Part shown: in pieces, positions 5,152 through 58,279 of the stretch
How the letters are laid out: each line of letters begins with the position of its first letter
Numbering within the stretch: position 1 is the stretch's first letter
Assembly: GCA_038747275.1 (NCBI GenBank)
Contig: JBCDJW010000003.1
Location: 4,098-68,097, forward strand
DNA: 64,000 nucleotides
Source of the DNA: Planctomycetota bacterium
Lineage (GTDB): Bacteria; Planctomycetota; Phycisphaerae; Phycisphaerales; Phycisphaeraceae
Direction: 5' to 3'
The notes under the pieces: generated by a model
Seen by the model: only the letters and a program-made list of their open reading frames with translations
Told to the model about the DNA's origin: nothing
Database searches by the model: none
Translations under genes and position numbers: made by a program

Positions 5152-5186
5152 TGCCATCCTAGCACACCCCCGCCCCCGGAAGTCAA
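5152..5186 (-). promoter_or_regulatory. Putative sigma70-type promoter of greA (TTGACT; extended -10 TGcTAGGAT)
   Basis: Minus strand reads TTGACT-tccgggggcgggggtgtgc-TAGGAT. The 19-bp spacer is long. Confidence 0.4.
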
Positions 5187-17718: not shown

Positions 17719-19871
17719 TGAGTAGCCTGAACGTATCGGAACAACTAAACGATCTAGGCAACACGCCGTCGGCGTCGGAGAAAGCAGCTTCCGGGGGCGG
17801 GGGTGCGTTGCGGGCGATTGTTTGGAAGGAGTGGCGGGAGTCGGCCAAGTGGGGCGTGGCGGGGCTGCTCGCCGTGGCGGGGACGCTGACGTTTGGGCTC
17901 TACCACGAGAGCGACGCGGGCGGTCACACAGGACTACAAAGCGACGAGGTGCTGGGGTTCTACGCGGTGGCGTGCGGTGCGGTGGGTTTGTTGCTGGGGG
18001 TGATGTCGTGGGCGTTTGATGTGACGCCGGACCGCTGGGGGTTGCTGCTACATCGGCCGGCGACACGGGGGCAGTGGTGGCTGGGCAAGGTCGGCGTGAA
18101 CCTCGGGGTGTACGCCGCGGCGACGCTGGTACCGTGGTTCCTGGCGGGGTGGTGGTGTTCGGTGCCGGGCAACGTAGGTGGGCCGTGGTACCCCGAGATG
18201 CTGTGGCCCGGCGTGGTGAACGCTGCGGGTGGTGGGTTGATGTATTTTGCGGGGATGCTGACGGTGGTGCGCCGTGCGCGGTGGTGGGCGAGCCGCGGGG
18301 TGTGGTTGTTGACGGCGGGGCTGGGGGCGACGTTGGTCGCGACGCTGCCGGAACTGTTTTGGACGTTGTTAAGTCTCGCAGCGGGCTGGTTGCTGCTGGG
18401 ATACGTATCTTGGGCCCACTTCGCGGCCCGTGCTTGTGGGCAGTTGGGCTTGCGGGAACAGGTTAGTTCATCGCTCGGCATTTTTGCCGGCGTAATGGTG
18501 ACGGCAGTGCTTTTAATTGCGTTATTTTTCGCGGTATTTTTTGGACCAACAGAACAATCGATACACACTGAAGAAAAATACTTTGTTACGAACAACGGCG
18601 ACGTTGTTGTAGGTACTTTCGAAGATTCTCACGGGAATTTAATTGCGGTCCGAGATCTGCAGGGCGGCACGATCCCCAACCCGGATAACGAGGCCGAAAC
18701 GTGGTCTTGGAAGGATCAAAACGGGTTAACGGCGACGAACGATATTTTTCGGCCTGCGAAGAACAACCTGCGGCGGGGCTCGGAAGACTGGCGACTTTTC
18801 AGCGATCTGTACGCGCCGGTCTACCCATATTTGCATCGCGGGGGCGGGTATGAAAATGAAGTTTTTGTGATTGGCGACCGTGATCCTAGCGAGTGGTACC
18901 TTGACCGCAGAACCAATCTATTCCTCGAGTTCAATGAAAAGACCAGCGGTTTTGTCGGCTGGATGAGCCCGCAAGGCTACGTACCCGCCGATCAAGCCGA
19001 GCCGGCGGGGTTCAAGGGGCCGATCCGAAAAGATGATTCGGGATTCGTACAAGCGTTCGTAACGCCTTACGAAATATTTGTGTTTGATGGTTGGACACGT
19101 GATCTGATGTTTATAGATCGCGCTGCGATCCCCAGCGGTTACGCTGAAGCGGCGAGTGTACGAGTAATGGATGCAACACCACTGAAATTTGCGATGATCA
19201 TCGATGGGCGTTTCGTACGGCGTGATTTTCCACATGAAATCCGGGAAGACGCTAGAGGGGTGACGACTATCGACTTACCTTTTGCCGAAGACCAGGACGA
19301 CTGGGCTTCGGCATGGGTTTACGATCCTAGTGAAGCGGATCAATTTGTCGTGATGTATTGGCCAAAGGTGCAATATGACGGTTACGAAAGTGACGAGGTA
19401 TTGGTGGTTCGGCGTTCCGCGGCGGGCGAAGAACTCGAGCGATTTACGCTTCCCGTTCTTTCGGACGGCGGGTGGACGCCGGACGACATGGGGTGGCCGG
19501 CGAGCGTGTTGGTTACGGCTTTAACGCCGTTCGGCTTGATTATCTGGGCTTACGGGACGGCCGTTCAAGAGTACGGTTGGGGTTACGCGACGTGGACGAT
19601 GAATATTTTTTCGTTCAGCTTTGAGGCGTTGCTAGCGGTGTTGGTGTCGATCGGCTTGCTGTTCGGCGGGCTTAGCATCTACCAAGCCCGCCGGGCGGGG
19701 CTTCCGCGGGGGCAGGTTTTGTGGTGGGCGTTCGCCGGGTTCTTCGGCGGGCTGGCGGGGTGGGTGACGCTGCGATGTTCGTACCGCTGGGGTGAACTGA
19801 GGTCGGCTAGTGCGCAGCAGGCAGCCCCCGAAGCGGACGGCACCGAGGTGTGGGACACGCAGGCGGGCTGA
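17715..19871 (+). CDS. ABC-2 type permease with large extracytoplasmic domain
   Basis: AIVWKEWRE start, LLLHRPATRGQWWLGK, several TMs, a ~330-aa soluble domain, then C-terminal TMs. Start GTG 17715 or ATG 17718 overlaps the ATPase stop. Confidence 0.8.
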   Translation: MMSSLNVSEQLNDLGNTPSASEKAASGGGGALRAIVWKEWRESAKWGVAGLLAVAGTLTFGLYHESDAGGHTGLQSDEVLGFYAVACGAVGLLLGVMSWAFDVTPDRWGLLLHRPATRGQWWLGKVGVNLGVYAAATLVPWFLAGWWCSVPGNVGGPWYPEMLWPGVVNAAGGGLMYFAGMLTVVRRARWWASRGVWLLTAGLGATLVATLPELFWTLLSLAAGWLLLGYVSWAHFAARACGQLGLREQVSSSLGIFAGVMVTAVLLIALFFAVFFGPTEQSIHTEEKYFVTNNGDVVVGTFEDSHGNLIAVRDLQGGTIPNPDNEAETWSWKDQNGLTATNDIFRPAKNNLRRGSEDWRLFSDLYAPVYPYLHRGGGYENEVFVIGDRDPSEWYLDRRTNLFLEFNEKTSGFVGWMSPQGYVPADQAEPAGFKGPIRKDDSGFVQAFVTPYEIFVFDGWTRDLMFIDRAAIPSGYAEAASVRVMDATPLKFAMIIDGRFVRRDFPHEIREDARGVTTIDLPFAEDQDDWASAWVYDPSEADQFVVMYWPKVQYDGYESDEVLVVRRSAAGEELERFTLPVLSDGGWTPDDMGWPASVLVTALTPFGLIIWAYGTAVQEYGWGYATWTMNIFSFSFEALLAVLVSIGLLFGGLSIYQARRAGLPRGQVLWWAFAGFFGGLAGWVTLRCSYRWGELRSASAQQAAPEADGTEVWDTQAG

Positions 19872-26277: not shown

Positions 26278-26583
26278 ATGCATACCACCTCATACACCGA
26301 AAATCGCCGACTTATCCGCACCACCGGTATTACGGCTGGCTTACTGACCGTTTTACTTTTTCTATCGGGCTGTCAGACCAGCGCCCAGTCTGGCGCAGCG
26401 ATCGGTGCCGGGATCGGCGTGCTGGCGGGGCAGGCGATCGGCGGCAACACTGAGGACACCCTCATCGGCGGCGTCATCGGGGCCGGCACGGGCTACGTCA
26501 TCGGTAACGAAATCGATAAGCAGGAGCAGGCGAAATCCAAGCCGCACTCATCCGCCGATGAATACGAAAGCTCGTCTTATTAA
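26278..26583 (+). CDS. Glycine-zipper lipoprotein
   Basis: Lipobox LSGC and GAAIGAGIGVLAGQAIGG...GGVIGAGTGYVIG. Confidence 0.85.
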   Translation: MHTTSYTENRRLIRTTGITAGLLTVLLFLSGCQTSAQSGAAIGAGIGVLAGQAIGGNTEDTLIGGVIGAGTGYVIGNEIDKQEQAKSKPHSSADEYESSSY

Positions 26584-26640: not shown

Positions 26641-26678
26641 AAAAAGGCCCGGCTGGGACCGAAGTCCCAAGCCGAGCC
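26641..26678 (-). terminator. Rho-independent terminator with UUCG loop
   Basis: Minus strand GGCTCGGCTTGGGAC-TTCG-GTCCCAGCCGGGCC-TTTTT. Confidence 0.85.
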
Positions 26679-26753
26679 CTTCCGGGGGCAAAATTGGTTT
26701 TTAGCGGCTATACGCTTTTTTGTGGCTCTTCACTCTGCCAAACACGTAGTCTT
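26641..26753 (-). ncRNA. Candidate sRNA 1 (about 110 nt)
   Basis: Promoter-like TTGACG(26787-26782)-16-GATAAT(26765-26760), shared motif GCCCCCGGAAGG (26689-26678), then the terminator. No expression data. Confidence 0.4.
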
Positions 26754-26828
26754 ATCACAATTATCGTTATTGATACATTTTCGTCAACTGTTTCATTCAT
26801 GCTTGATTAATTTACACGAGCGATAAAG

Positions 26829-27836
26829 TCACGCCCGTCGCCGGACTATTCCGGGGTCGATTCCTAGTTTTGATAGCTGTGGCTGGAGTTCTTGCCAGAA
26901 CCGCTTGGCGTCGCTGCCGTAGCCCGCGGTGGGGGCGATTTGGGGAAGTATTCGGCTGAAATAGGCTTGGAAGCGGGCCATCAGAAGCTCGCGGTTGTAT
27001 TTGGCGAGCATCGACGCCAGGGCGACGGGCATGTGCTGTTCTTCGGCGGCGGTCTGGAAATGAATAGTCATCTCGCCGGCTTCGGGGCCGGTAGCCGCCT
27101 GAATCCGGTAGGTGGATCGCCCGGCCGACTCGCCGAGGACATCGACCTCGGCGTCGGGAAAATTCATCGCCAGCACGTCGCGGTAACGCATCCGCCCGGA
27201 TTGGCGGTCGACCACGACGGTGGGGCGGTGCTCGGCGTATTGCCGCCAGATATGCTGGAGGTGGCCGGCGACGAAGGTGAAGCTGACCGCCGCCTTGGAT
27301 TTGGTGGCCTCGGTCATACGATTAAACCGGTCCTCGAAGACCACGGCGCAGCCCAGGTCGGCCACCTCGACGCCGATCCGGCCGCAGGTCTGACGCAGCA
27401 CCCCTCGGGCGATCGCCAACTCGCCCGCGTCAGCCGACACGGGCAGTTCCGCCCACGGCCCGACTTCCTCCACGGTGTACCAAGGCATGCCGTGCAGCGA
27501 CCGGTGGCTGTCTTCCCCCAACACATCCAGCCACTCCGCCACGTTACCCGGGCCGTCTTCCGCCGAGGGATACATCAGCGAGGCGAAGGCTAGGCAGCCC
27601 ATCTCCAGGTGCTTGATCCCCGCGGCCTTGGTTTTGAGCTTCTTCGAATCGTTGACCACCAGCCGGCCTTTTCGGCCCGAAAGCCGACGGCAGACGGCCT
27701 TGTTGAGCCGAGCCCAGAGGTCGGGCGGCGGGGCGTCGTGCTCGAGCTTCGGGATCCGCAGCACGCATCGGCCGACGGTCATCGGGCCGAATGATGGCCC
27801 GTACCCCGCCTCGTCGATGCCCGCGTAAATAAACAT
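26829..27836 (-). CDS. Ribonuclease HII-family protein (long, divergent)
   Basis: AGIDEAGYGP, NDSKKL, VVVDRQ and VALASMLAK motifs. Confidence 0.8.
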   Translation of the reverse strand: MFIYAGIDEAGYGPSFGPMTVGRCVLRIPKLEHDAPPPDLWARLNKAVCRRLSGRKGRLVVNDSKKLKTKAAGIKHLEMGCLAFASLMYPSAEDGPGNVAEWLDVLGEDSHRSLHGMPWYTVEEVGPWAELPVSADAGELAIARGVLRQTCGRIGVEVADLGCAVVFEDRFNRMTEATKSKAAVSFTFVAGHLQHIWRQYAEHRPTVVVDRQSGRMRYRDVLAMNFPDAEVDVLGESAGRSTYRIQAATGPEAGEMTIHFQTAAEEQHMPVALASMLAKYNRELLMARFQAYFSRILPQIAPTAGYGSDAKRFWQELQPQLSKLGIDPGIVRRRA

Positions 27837-27953
27837 AAACCATTTCCTTGACTGGTTTAAAAGCTCATAACGCCGCGACGAAGCCGCTAAACCCGGCGGG
27901 AACGTCCCTATAATGTAACTGGTGAAATCGGTTCAATCGCCCGGAGCTTAAAG

Positions 27954-28817
27954 ATGAGAAAGAGACGTGTCTTGACGTGGTCGTCGGGTTACTTGGCGGC
28001 GGGCCTAATGGGGATGGGCCTGCTCGGCGGGCCGACGCCGGCTTTAGCGCAGACGCGAGTGATCGCGGACGCCGACGTCTCGGCGACGGGCCGGACGCAG
28101 ACGGTGGTGGTCACGCAGCGGCCGCTGCGGACGTTCCGCGGCCAAGCGGTCCGTGTGGGGCGGTTCGCCGAGGACCGCCGATCGATCGGTGTGGTCCGCC
28201 CGCTGCGGCGGGTACCGAGCGTGTTCGAGGATCGTTGTGATACCGTCGGCACCTCGGGCGTGTTCTTCGATACGTTCCCGCGGTTCGAGGAATCGATCGG
28301 GGTAGTGCGGCCGTTCCGCGTGTACCGGCCGCCGGTGCGCCATAAGCCGAAGACCTACACCAATCCGAATGCTGATCAAGCGTCGGCCTCGATCGAACAG
28401 GCTGAATCGGATTCGGCTACGGCGTTGTTGGTGCCGGTCCTTTCCGAAGATATCTCGGTTAGTGCGGTGGAAATAGTGGAGCTGCCGGAGTCTTTGCGCG
28501 AAGACCCGTGGGCGCTCCTTAACCAAGGTTATTACCGCGAAGCCCGCCAGCGCTTCGCCACGCTCGGCGGCCTGGACGACACCTCGATCCGTACCGGCCA
28601 CGCCTTGGCAGCAGCCTTGTCCGGCGACCTGCGTGGCGGTGCCGCGCTGATGCCTGCCGATCCGGCGCTACCCGACGGCACAGCTTTCGAGCCCGGAACG
28701 CGGAAGCGTTTGGAGCAGACTACCCGCTACCTCTACGCCGGCGACGCGGCGATGCAGGCCAAACTTTACGCGTTGCTTGAGTTGTCTCCGCCCAACGCGT
28801 TGGCCGCTGCGGACTGA
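27954..28817 (+). CDS. Secreted hypothetical protein
   Basis: Signal-peptide-like N-terminus (…PTPALA), Arg-rich segment, helical C-terminus. Confidence 0.65.
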   Translation: MRKRRVLTWSSGYLAAGLMGMGLLGGPTPALAQTRVIADADVSATGRTQTVVVTQRPLRTFRGQAVRVGRFAEDRRSIGVVRPLRRVPSVFEDRCDTVGTSGVFFDTFPRFEESIGVVRPFRVYRPPVRHKPKTYTNPNADQASASIEQAESDSATALLVPVLSEDISVSAVEIVELPESLREDPWALLNQGYYREARQRFATLGGLDDTSIRTGHALAAALSGDLRGGAALMPADPALPDGTAFEPGTRKRLEQTTRYLYAGDAAMQAKLYALLELSPPNALAAAD

Positions 28818-28856
28818 GCACCGCGATCGGCTTCAACACAAAGGCTGTATAGCCAT

Positions 28857-28896
28857 AAAAAAAGCCGGCGGGCGATCCGAGGACCGCACCGCCGAC
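28857..28896 (-). terminator. Rho-independent terminator
   Basis: Minus strand GTCGGCGGTGCGGTC-CTCG-GATCGCCCGCCGGC-TTTTTTT. Confidence 0.85.
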
Positions 28897-28932
28897 CTTC
28901 CGGGGGCTGTGTTGTGTCGCCGTTAAGCAACA
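28857..28932 (-). ncRNA. Candidate sRNA 2 (about 75 nt)
   Basis: Promoter-like TTGCAC(28966-28961)-16-TATATT(28944-28939), shared motif GCCCCCGGAAGG (28907-28896), then the terminator. No expression data. Confidence 0.4.
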
Positions 28933-29108
28933 GTGATAAATATAAGTAAATTGCTCAGGCGTGCAAGTTCGTGTTGTCCCGAGAATATTATCGGTAAATT
29001 CCCGATTTCAATTTTGTCGTTAAATATAACATTCGGCTGCTTTTATCTATTCTGTGTGGTCTTGAGGTGACACATCTGTTTCGCTTTCTAATCCCTCGAA
29101 GCATCAAT

Positions 29109-29678
29109 TCACGCGCTGCGTAGCCACGTAAGGTCGTGCTTCCGCATCTGGTATCGGAGTTGACGCAGGCTGAGACCCAGGTCGGCGGCGACGTCGTCGA
29201 GGGTGCCCGCCCGGTTGCGGTTGAAGGCGAACTCGATCTCTTCGCGGTGTATGTCTTCCCATTTGCGTTGGCGGAAGCGTTCGGTCCGTTTGAGGTGGAC
29301 CGCCATCGCCGACTGGACCAGGTTCCACAGGTCCACCGCGTTCCGGGTCTTGTCCCAGGTGGCGTAGGCGTGGCCTTCGACGACGTAGCGCAGCGTCTGC
29401 GGCCAAGAAAACGCCTCGTTGCCCATGACGATGACGGGGGCTGTGGCGTACTCCCGCTCGAACAACGGCATGAGCTCGATCCCGTCGATCCCGCAGTCCA
29501 GTTCTTTGTCGAGCAGGATGCAGGCGACGTTACGAGGGTCGGGCTTGTTGGCCAGCAGGGCGGCGGGTCCGGTGAAGCCGTGGCATTCGAACGGGAAAGC
29601 CGCGGTGGTGTTCTGGAGGATTCCCAGCACCGTGGGGTCGTCGTCGATCACCAGAAGTATGTCGTTGTTGCCCGGCAT
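29109..29678 (-). CDS. Response regulator: receiver domain + Fis-type HTH
   Basis: LLVIDDD, ILLD (phosphoacceptor), C-term LDDVAADLGLSLRQLRYQMRKH. Confidence 0.8.
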   Translation of the reverse strand: MPGNNDILLVIDDDPTVLGILQNTTAAFPFECHGFTGPAALLANKPDPRNVACILLDKELDCGIDGIELMPLFEREYATAPVIVMGNEAFSWPQTLRYVVEGHAYATWDKTRNAVDLWNLVQSAMAVHLKRTERFRQRKWEDIHREEIEFAFNRNRAGTLDDVAADLGLSLRQLRYQMRKHDLTWLRSA

Positions 29679-56211: not shown

Positions 56212-57065
56212 TGGCAAGCAATCAAAACGGAGCCCGTCTGTGTAATCCCCAAGCCGCTCGCGGCGGCTCGACCGTTTTCGCTTCCGGGGGCCGGGGGCGT
56301 TTCCGGGGGCGGGGGGGGGCGGTGATGGTGGAGGCGTTGTTGGTGTTGCCGCTGATTTTTGTGGTTTTAGCGTTGGTGATCTACTTCGGCTTCTCGTTCG
56401 AGCGGATGCAGAGGGGCATGATGATGGACCGCTACGAGTCGTGGCGGGGCGCGGCGAAGGCCCCGGGCCCAGCGGTCGACGCGGTGGAGGGCGCGAGCGT
56501 CCGCCCGATGCAGGAATTGTTCTTTGTCGGCGACGACCCGACGCTTCGGCTTGAGCCGTCGGACTTCTTCCCGGCCGAGCCGACCGAGAGCCTGGAGCGG
56601 GCGGCGGCCGTCGAGTCGGTGGGAGCCCTTGACCTCACCCAGCAGTACTTCAACGATTTCCCGCGCGGCCGATCGATGCGTTTCTTCGTGGGTTCACCGG
56701 CGAGCTCTCCTCTTTTGCAACGCCTGTTCCCCGGCGACATCTCCCACCGCCACACGGTCATGGACACCGACTGGCGTTTCGTGAACTTCGTCTTGGAAGA
56801 CGGGCAGTGGTTCGACGTCGAGGACGGCGTGTACCTCGATATCCGCCAGGCACCCCGCGAAGTGACCGAGGGGCTCGACTTGGTGCCGACGCAGACGCCG
56901 TCACGCCCGGTGCGGGACGTTTTTTACACCGACTACGAACTCCGGCTGGAACCGCTGAGCAACGGCAACCCGATCGCCGAACGGCTGAAAGACTTCTATC
57001 TCGCCTACCCGCAGTACTGGGGGCCGCAGATCGATGAGCAATTCGAAGCCGGCCAGCCTTGGTGA
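56208..57065 (+). CDS. TadE-like pseudopilin
   Basis: RGRGG|AVMVEALLVLP; GTGA overlap with the upstream gene. Confidence 0.8.
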   Translation: MMASNQNGARLCNPQAARGGSTVFASGGRGRFRGRGGAVMVEALLVLPLIFVVLALVIYFGFSFERMQRGMMMDRYESWRGAAKAPGPAVDAVEGASVRPMQELFFVGDDPTLRLEPSDFFPAEPTESLERAAAVESVGALDLTQQYFNDFPRGRSMRFFVGSPASSPLLQRLFPGDISHRHTVMDTDWRFVNFVLEDGQWFDVEDGVYLDIRQAPREVTEGLDLVPTQTPSRPVRDVFYTDYELRLEPLSNGNPIAERLKDFYLAYPQYWGPQIDEQFEAGQPW

Positions 57066-57886: not shown

Positions 57887-58279
57887 CTACTGCCCGGAAC
57901 CGCGGAGGGCGGCGGCTTCTTGATACCCGGCGTATTGGCCGGTATCCATCAACGAAAACGTGATAAACAGCGTCACGAACAGGAGCGAGACGACGAGGAT
58001 GATGCCGTTCAGCGGGGCGTCCCAACGCAGGTGCATGAAGTACAGCCCGACCACCGCGGCCTTGACCAATGCGATCGCCATCGCAACGACGAGGTTCATC
58101 TCGTAGCCAAAGTCGAGCTTCGTCACCGCCACGGTGATGAACGTCAGGAACATCAGGACGAGGAAGATGCTGAACAAGAAGCCCAACGGCACCACGTGGT
58201 GGGCGTGATCGCCCCCGGAATGACCGTGGTGATCGTCGTCGTGGTGCGTATCGTGCTCGGGGTGGGCGGTTTCGGACAT
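57887..58279 (-). CDS. Cytochrome c oxidase subunit IV (caa3-type)
   Basis: LTFITVA, IALVKAAVVGLYFMHLRWD; His-rich N-terminus. Confidence 0.92.
   Translation of the reverse strand: MSETAHPEHDTHHDDDHHGHSGGDHAHHVVPLGFLFSIFLVLMFLTFITVAVTKLDFGYEMNLVVAMAIALVKAAVVGLYFMHLRWDAPLNGIILVVSLLFVTLFITFSLMDTGQYAGYQEAAALRGSGQ

Follow-up and report, generated by a model that had tools for sequence, protein, structure and literature searches.

We describe two related intergenic elements on the minus strand of a 64-kb stretch of a genome of the order Phycisphaerales (phylum Planctomycetota). This whole stretch is hereafter called the window, and its numbering is used unless a contig (C1, C2 and so on) is named. 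Element 1 lies between the convergent genes for an RNase HII-like protein (26829-27836, minus strand) and a Gly-zipper protein (26278-26583, plus strand). Element 2 lies between a response-regulator/HTH_8 gene ending at 29109 (minus strand) and a convergent open reading frame (ORF) of 287 amino acids (aa; 27954-28817, plus strand). Each carries the 12-mer GCCCCCGGAAGG directly ahead of a terminator hairpin. We regard it as very likely that the two belong to a family of small RNAs (sRNAs) that functions at the RNA level.

An initial annotation, made from the letters of the window, had reported the same 12-mer at both loci, and the minus strand, read directly, does carry exact copies there. The hairpin and U-tract that it placed after the motif are equally real: the folds are stable, the arms TCGGC...GCCGG are common to both elements, and the final G of the motif forms the first G-C pair of the hairpin. 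Stems of 14-19 bp, rich in G+C and followed by T5 in element 1 or T7 in element 2, are those of intrinsic terminators. Folding of 61-nucleotide (nt) stretches gave -33.0 kcal/mol for element 1 and -32.4 kcal/mol for element 2, with z of about -4.2 (-4.15 for element 2) against dinucleotide shuffles. A C-rich unpaired seed beside the terminator had also been proposed. The linker and GCCCCC are indeed predicted to be free, but in the minimum free energy (MFE) fold GGAAG is weakly paired with the U-run through A-U and G-U pairs, and the predicted free part is (Y)UUGCCCCC only.

Sigma70-like hexamers with a 16-bp spacer precede both elements, as annotated, although the two pairs differ in quality; that of element 1 matches the consensus at 10 of 12 positions and that of element 2 at 8 of 12, its weak -35 hexamer matching at three of six. 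The transcripts predicted from them (Table 1) are close in length to the ~110 and ~75 nt estimated earlier. The motif starts ~140 nt (element 1) and ~200 nt (element 2) past the upstream stop codon. Both window copies lie downstream of a co-directional gene without an intervening terminator; the RNase HII-like and response-regulator mRNAs probably end at these terminators too.

Table 1. Predicted parts of the two window elements and further family members in the same genome
Feature	Coordinates	Strand	Details
Element 1 candidate sigma70 promoter	26760..26787	-	-35 TTGACG 26787-26782, 16-nt spacer, -10 GATAAT 26765-26760; 10/12 consensus matches
Element 1 predicted sRNA	26641..26753	-	~113 nt; 5' end placed 7 nt past the -10 box, 3' end at the U-run
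Element 1 motif	26678..26689	-	GCCCCCGGAAGG; invariant in alignment A1
Element 1 intrinsic terminator	26641..26678	-	hairpin 26678-26646 (14 bp, one bulge, UUCG loop), U-run 26645-26641
Element 1 match to covariance model R1	26641..26693	-	75.1 bits
Element 2 candidate promoter	28939..28966	-	-35 TTGCAC 28966-28961, 16-nt spacer, -10 TATATT 28944-28939; 8/12 consensus matches
Element 2 predicted sRNA	28857..28932	-	~76 nt; small 5' hairpin (GUUGCUUAACGGCGAC)
Element 2 motif	28896..28907	-	GCCCCCGGAAGG; sequence read
Element 2 intrinsic terminator	28857..28896	-	hairpin 28896-28864 (CUCG loop), U-run 28863-28857
Element 2 match to covariance model R1	28857..28911	-	71.3 bits
Third family member	C3:78827-78878	+	~10.7 kb past the window end; flanked by a divergent ORF of 149 aa on one side and a PPIC-type rotamase gene, co-directional, on the other
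Fourth family member	C1:266899-266948	-	carries GCCCCCGGAAtG; starts ~20 nt after a 127-aa ORF
Fifth family member	C2:70392-70442	-	carries aCCCCCGGAAGc

Copies in the genome and across the order

The motif is more frequent than chance allows. Seven sites in the window match the 12-mer with at most one mismatch, against 1.1 expected, and none of 100 shuffles reached seven. In the whole assembly (G000; 3.76 Mb, 62% G+C, 57 contigs) the exact 12-mer occurs 20 times, against ~2.2 expected from base composition, part of these copies sitting in an insertion sequence (IS)-like repeat or in coding DNA. The initial annotation had called for a genome-wide search for the motif followed by a terminator. 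Among 371 strict candidates for a hairpin with a T-run, exactly five have CCCCCGGAA in register just before the stem, where ~0.1 would be expected. With so few carriers among the terminator candidates, a generic terminator feature is ruled out.

A covariance model, R1, was built from 23 sequences; its E-values are rough. In this genome R1 returned the same five copies (E = 1.7e-11, 9e-11, 1.4e-5, 7.5e-5 and 0.0165) and none other at E<=1. A 48-kb part of contig C3 holds three of the five. Element 1 corresponds by orthology to the canonical member, which is found throughout the order mostly in single copy and has the GGGCUCGG...CCGGGCC stem; element 2 is a paralogue, conserved at the level of the genus.

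Matches to R1 were obtained in 70 of 121 sampled genomes of the GTDB order Phycisphaerales, mostly one per genome and at most nine. By family (labelled f1 to f6), they occur in 23/29 genomes of f1, 8/30 of f2, 28/29 of f3, 0/11 of f4, 8/19 of f5 and 2/2 of f6. The cultured strain ZRK34 (complete genome CP050848.1) has four. In a phylum-wide sample of 151 genomes, R1 matched only the genome under study and one other of the same order, and it found nothing in the ~142 Planctomycetota genomes outside Phycisphaerales. A scan of 185,579 species genomes for the exact pattern gave at least 120 records, and nearly all of those listed are titled as Phycisphaerales, Phycisphaerae or Planctomycetota metagenome-assembled genomes (MAGs). 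A few listed records are labelled 'Isosphaeraceae' or 'Planctomycetales'; the two that were checked (loci L059 and L088) belong to the same order in GTDB (G277 = G095, G281 = G055). As far as sampled, the family is restricted to the order Phycisphaerales.

At the gathering thresholds of Rfam 15, the window gives two tRNAs only and no match at either element; at E<=10 the two loci give only a 13-bit chance match to BTH_s19, whose threshold is 153 bits. No sRNA family for Phycisphaerales was found in Rfam 15, and the searchable literature yielded no 12-mer in such a context, no described Phycisphaerales sRNA and no transcriptome paper on these organisms. We therefore suggest that the elements represent a new family of bacterial small regulatory RNA, one that matches no Rfam 15 family and is defined by comparative evidence alone.

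Conservation is confined to the element itself. When both intergenic regions were compared with 30 relatives by blastn, alignment was limited to ~51 nt comprising the motif, the hairpin and the T-run. These were 100% identical in four further species of the genus, and in the order's other families identity was 82-87%. Synteny was examined by anchoring on the neighbouring protein, which is independent of the element, and running R1 with its filters off. The RNase HII-like orthologue is present in 16 of 16 genus genomes. In 10 of these, with orthologues of 65-100% identity, element 1 lies downstream of the gene in the same orientation; it was not found by R1 in four genomes with orthologues of 60-63% identity, and in a fifth the contig ends at the gene. 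Over the 10 syntenic loci, where the neighbouring protein is 65-82% identical, the element averages 89% identity. Identity falls to 25% in the 90 nt ahead of it and to 29% in the 60 nt behind it, and these flanks are unalignable. Synteny also holds for element 2 past the response-regulator gene, with orthologues 96% identical in two congeneric genomes (G006 and G009). Within the genus, the distance from the RNase HII-like gene to element 1 is 150-200 nt and that from the response-regulator gene to element 2 is 230-260 nt, each element being on the same strand as its gene. The sibling sRNA family proposed in the initial annotation, and the persistence of the motif in related genomes that it called for, are thus supported both by the enrichment before terminators and by syntenic conservation without conservation of the flanks.

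The stem evolves as a paired structure, and the 12-mer stays invariant across sub-families with completely different stems. RNAalifold reported double changes at 10 of 16 hairpin pairs. Among 92 distinct sequences, 95.3% of the cells are paired (35-76% in controls with the partner slid), with 146 double-change cells against 36 in shuffles.

Neighbouring genes, promoters and mode of action

All promoter positions and transcript ends given here are predicted, and neighbours were read from crude ORF calls at 105 loci across the order. In 64 of 89 cases the closest gene upstream is transcribed from the opposite strand. The downstream side shows no preferred orientation, with 46 co-directional and 39 convergent genes. 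Since the upstream gene is mostly divergent and the downstream gene points either way, the element is generally neither a 3' untranslated region (UTR) nor a 5' leader. A cis-acting leader or riboswitch is ruled out by this neighbour orientation, and the genes that the two window copies face are convergent. In 58 of 119 unique upstream regions, a sigma70-like promoter with a score of 9/12 or more precedes the motif on the sense strand, compared with 9.5 in shuffles and 4 in the reverse complement, the -10 box ending 13-84 nt ahead of the motif. The enriched promoters and the divergent upstream genes are indirect evidence for the independent transcription start sites that the initial annotation had asked for. 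With a predicted promoter and terminator of its own and an intergenic position, a typical family member would, by comparative inference, be an independent trans-encoded sRNA gene.

In the other families of the order (loci L029-L134), the canonical copy commonly sits between a divergent PTPS/QueD-family gene and a protein of 230-300 aa, with RuvC beyond. The latter protein has a signal-peptide-like N-terminus, as judged by eye, and no Pfam match. In the genome under study the PTPS/QueD, 230-300-aa protein and RuvC genes are on other contigs.

Fifty transcripts were predicted, 53-125 nt long with a median of 79 nt. Their predicted fold begins in some cases with a 5' hairpin, continues with ~15 unpaired nt and ends in the terminator. 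Positions -9 to -1 before the motif are nearly G-free (G <=0.11). The unpaired probability is 0.76-0.97 between position -8 and the end of the C-run, and at most 0.06 for GAAGG.

These features suggest the following model. Each gene would have its own sigma70-type promoter driving an RNA of ~55-125 nt, whose 5' part would be short and fast-evolving, often with one hairpin and sometimes nearly absent. A nearly G-free unpaired linker of ~9 nt would run into the invariant GCCCCCGGAAGG, and the covarying Rho-independent terminator would form a 3' module that stabilises the RNA. Pairing to G-rich mRNA sites would then involve the unpaired (Y)UUGCCCCC(GG) stretch (YUUGCCCCC). We infer from these data that the RNAs are produced and act in trans. 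The elements would accordingly be paralogous genes of an sRNA family with an invariant motif before the terminator, probably base-pairing in trans, and we judge the chances of this complete reading to be evenly balanced. Base pairing as the mode of action, taken by itself, we put forward tentatively, at slightly less than even; it is favoured because an accessible, G-free, C-rich stretch beside a terminator has the classic look of a seed.

Several observations weigh against this model, and some of them bear on the origin of the transcript. The candidate promoter of element 1 varies in position and strength among its genus orthologues, so the window copies could be derived from 3' UTRs, and part of their RNA pool may have this origin. 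Moreover, loci L055-L134 were picked by a pattern that included the motif and the lower stem, which biases those columns of alignment A2 and, within this subset, leaves only the distal stem columns informative.

The initial annotation had named a conserved 3'-UTR element as the alternative to an sRNA family. In its fullest form, this alternative holds that the conserved part is a cis-acting 3'-end module, that is, a specialised terminator or stability element in the 3' UTR of the upstream mRNA, acting for example as a site for a termination factor or as a block to a 3' exonuclease. It may apply to the two window copies, which have a co-directional gene upstream and no terminator between; throughout the genus, the copies past the RNase HII-like and response-regulator genes share that arrangement, their promoters are inconsistent, and the C1 copy begins close behind an ORF (Table 1). 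Across the order, where the upstream gene is mostly divergent, there is no upstream mRNA to terminate at 64 of 89 loci. Sense-strand promoters are enriched six-fold, the motif marks just five of the 371 genomic terminator candidates, and the genes adjoining family copies are functionally unrelated. As a general account we find it quite improbable.

Other observations against the proposed sRNA model concern the motif. All 12 of its bases are invariant, including the predicted-paired GGAAGG, which is more than a typical seed of 6-8 nt needs; a protein site would fit such strict invariance equally well. No consistent complementarity was found in the conserved downstream neighbour gene, and no convincing complementarity to tRNAs. 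In five word-poor genomes, 46 sites of TCCGGGGGC (the 9-mer complement) share no orthologous position, even between congeners, bar one gene pair, which leaves only shorter or imperfect matches for any conserved duplex. A target search in the genome under study was swamped by its 700 copies of the complement TTCCGGGGG, which are mostly intragenic and show no bias toward 5' UTRs.

An anti-Shine-Dalgarno (anti-SD) role is unlikely because the 16S rRNA tail is the standard CCUCCUUUCU and the SD-like sequences of the genome resemble AAGGAG rather than a run of five G. A pseudoknot between the motif and the hairpin loop, considered by eye, was dropped since the loops vary. One candidate target site in a 5' UTR, at window position 56280, was set aside; it is probably coding, within the likely arginine/glycine-rich N-terminus of an ORF at 56212-57065 (plus strand). 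This ORF, whose start codon is uncertain, has an arginine/glycine-rich stretch arising from two TTCCGGGGGC copies, followed by a hydrophobic, TadE-like segment (…VEALLVLPLIFVVL…, by eye).

A protein-docking or sequestering RNA is the principal alternative, and one that we consider possible though rather unlikely. Here the 12-mer, with or without the lower stem, would be the site of an RNA-binding protein, either CsrA through the single GGA or an as yet unnamed chaperone, and the variable 5' part would be a spacer or the real seed. It would account for the invariance of 12 bases of which GGAAG needs only weak pairing with U, given that A's in place of GGAAGG would pair equally well, and for the lack of a conserved, perfectly complementary target site in the five word-poor genomes. 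CsrA is present in all 121 genomes of the order, with two copies in the genome under study, and has been reported as widespread in Planctomycetota (PMC13443453). Hfq (PF17209) and ProQ (PF04352) gave no match in the genome under study, which is 98.6% complete and in which the controls responded. Furthermore, as read from the sequence, a 4-bp helix in the main sub-family (G1-C14..C4-G11) could present a CCGGAA hexaloop, C[CCGGAA]G.

The CsrA consensus ANGGAN starts with A. This loop, however, begins with C, and the small helix is not kept in sub-families 2 and 3 and would compete with the terminator. The phylogenetic profile of CsrA is non-discriminating, the protein being also present in every genome that lacks the RNA (f4 among them), and 5' parts that are unalignable even within the genus would make poor seeds. 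The hint in the initial annotation that GGA motifs bind CsrA does not extend to a sponge, which the counts do not support: there is a single GGA per RNA and no excess in the 5' parts, 42 leaders holding 18 GGA against 16.1 +/- 3.7 in shuffles. The more specific proposal that the 12-mer is not a seed and instead docks an RNA-binding protein or chaperone system of Phycisphaerales yet to be named seems improbable to us. If true, the family would give access to a new type of regulatory system combining sRNA and protein, and lineage-specific expansions of TTCCGGGGG (up to ~2100 copies per genome) might be tied to the same recognition system.

Comparison with known RNA systems

In architecture, the Phycisphaerales RNA of the proposed sRNA model appears closest to Yfr1. 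Yfr1 is a cyanobacterial sRNA of ~50-70 nt with a 5' hairpin, an ultraconserved unpaired sequence of 11-12 nt and a terminator, found clade-wide with varying stems. Its conserved sequence ACUCCUCACAC is unrelated to GCCCCCGGAAGG, however, it belongs to another phylum, and half of the Phycisphaerales motif can pair with the U-run. The nearest seed chemistry would be that of the RsaE/RoxS type of Firmicutes, which acts with no strict need for Hfq; in RsaE, several UCCC loop motifs are aimed at Shine-Dalgarno sequences. The common feature may be an unpaired C-run beside the terminator, thought to pair with G-rich mRNA sites; the Phycisphaerales RNA differs in having one C5 run, in the linker, and no sequence similarity.

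CsrB, RsmY and RsmZ resemble the family in that a GGA immediately precedes the Rho-independent terminator, and every genome of the order encodes CsrA, but these sponges carry many GGA in hairpin loops, whereas the Phycisphaerales RNAs carry one. Modularity and a 3' terminator with a U-tail are shared with the Hfq-dependent enterobacterial sRNAs. The window copies also resemble the 3'-UTR-derived CpxQ and DapZ in sharing a terminator with the upstream mRNA. Unlike in these two groups, no Hfq or ProQ was detected in the genome under study, and the conserved part is the terminator-proximal module, with a variable 5' part; most family members, in contrast to CpxQ and DapZ, have no co-directional upstream gene. 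The family provides a handle on post-transcriptional regulation in a lineage that seemingly lacks Hfq and ProQ. A covariance model from its sequences could annotate many Phycisphaerales MAGs, and strain ZRK34, cultured and completely sequenced, makes experiments possible.

The over-represented genomic word and repeats

No 8-mer of the genome is more over-represented than the motif core, TCCGGGGG/CCCCCGGA (853 copies against 449 expected, z 19), and the 9-mer TTCCGGGGG occurs 700 times against 20 for its backwards control. The word is found in all frames and on both gene strands, frequently as G-rich tandem repeats with a spacing of 9, 12 or 18 nt; examples in the window lie at 5172-5183 (plus), 17787-17798 (minus), 56280-56291 (minus) and 58211-58222 (plus). 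Polarity of the kind shown by Chi or KOPS (FtsK-orienting polar sequences) was considered and is weak, with a GC-skew ratio of 293:248. Across the order the excess is patchy: G074 has 2129 copies against 37, G124 has 939 against 32 and G039 has 893 against 61, and in most genomes of f2, f3 and f4 the word is at control level.

This abundance might suggest a DNA-level element, in which the motif is selected as an uptake-signal-like or protein-binding word of double-stranded DNA and its position at terminators is secondary. The word is hyper-abundant on both strands and in all frames, reaching 2129 copies in the order. Its abundance is, however, uncoupled from the presence of the RNA; in family f3, 28 of 29 genomes carry the RNA and the word is no more frequent than its control, while the genomes G034, G096, G074 and G081 are rich in the word and have no R1 match. 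A link between the two is ruled out by these distributions. In addition, the fixed orientation to promoter and terminator, the nearly G-free linker in the sense strand and the covarying stem are strand-specific features of an RNA, and the full 12-mer has only 20 copies. We consider a DNA-level role highly improbable. The DNA uptake sequences (DUS) of Neisseria offer the obvious parallel of a short word over-represented genome-wide at terminators, but DUS form the stem as inverted pairs and number thousands, whereas here a single oriented copy of a rare 12-mer precedes the stem, and the abundance of the word is uncoupled from the presence of the element.

The IS-like repeat family noted above has the ends GGGTCTGTCTACCAGGGGGCCGAACGACG...GTGCGCCCCCGGAAGGG and carries the exact 12-mer or, in some copies, a one-base variant. 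There a hairpin ahead of a T-run arises from pairing of the 12-mer with CCAGGGGGC, which lies upstream of it. The repeat breaks several contigs, with copies at the contig ends C2:86, C5:86, C46:45 and C2:144457, and further copies lie at C9:25397, C16:45827, C44:12480, C1:180402, C28:44411 and C38:16501. Finally, outside the window at ~137.36 kb of contig C3, a perfect palindromic hairpin, GCCCCCGG-cgu-CCGGGGGC, in which the first eight bases of the motif are paired with their own complement, immediately precedes an AAAGGAG box and an ATG, possibly in a 5' UTR.

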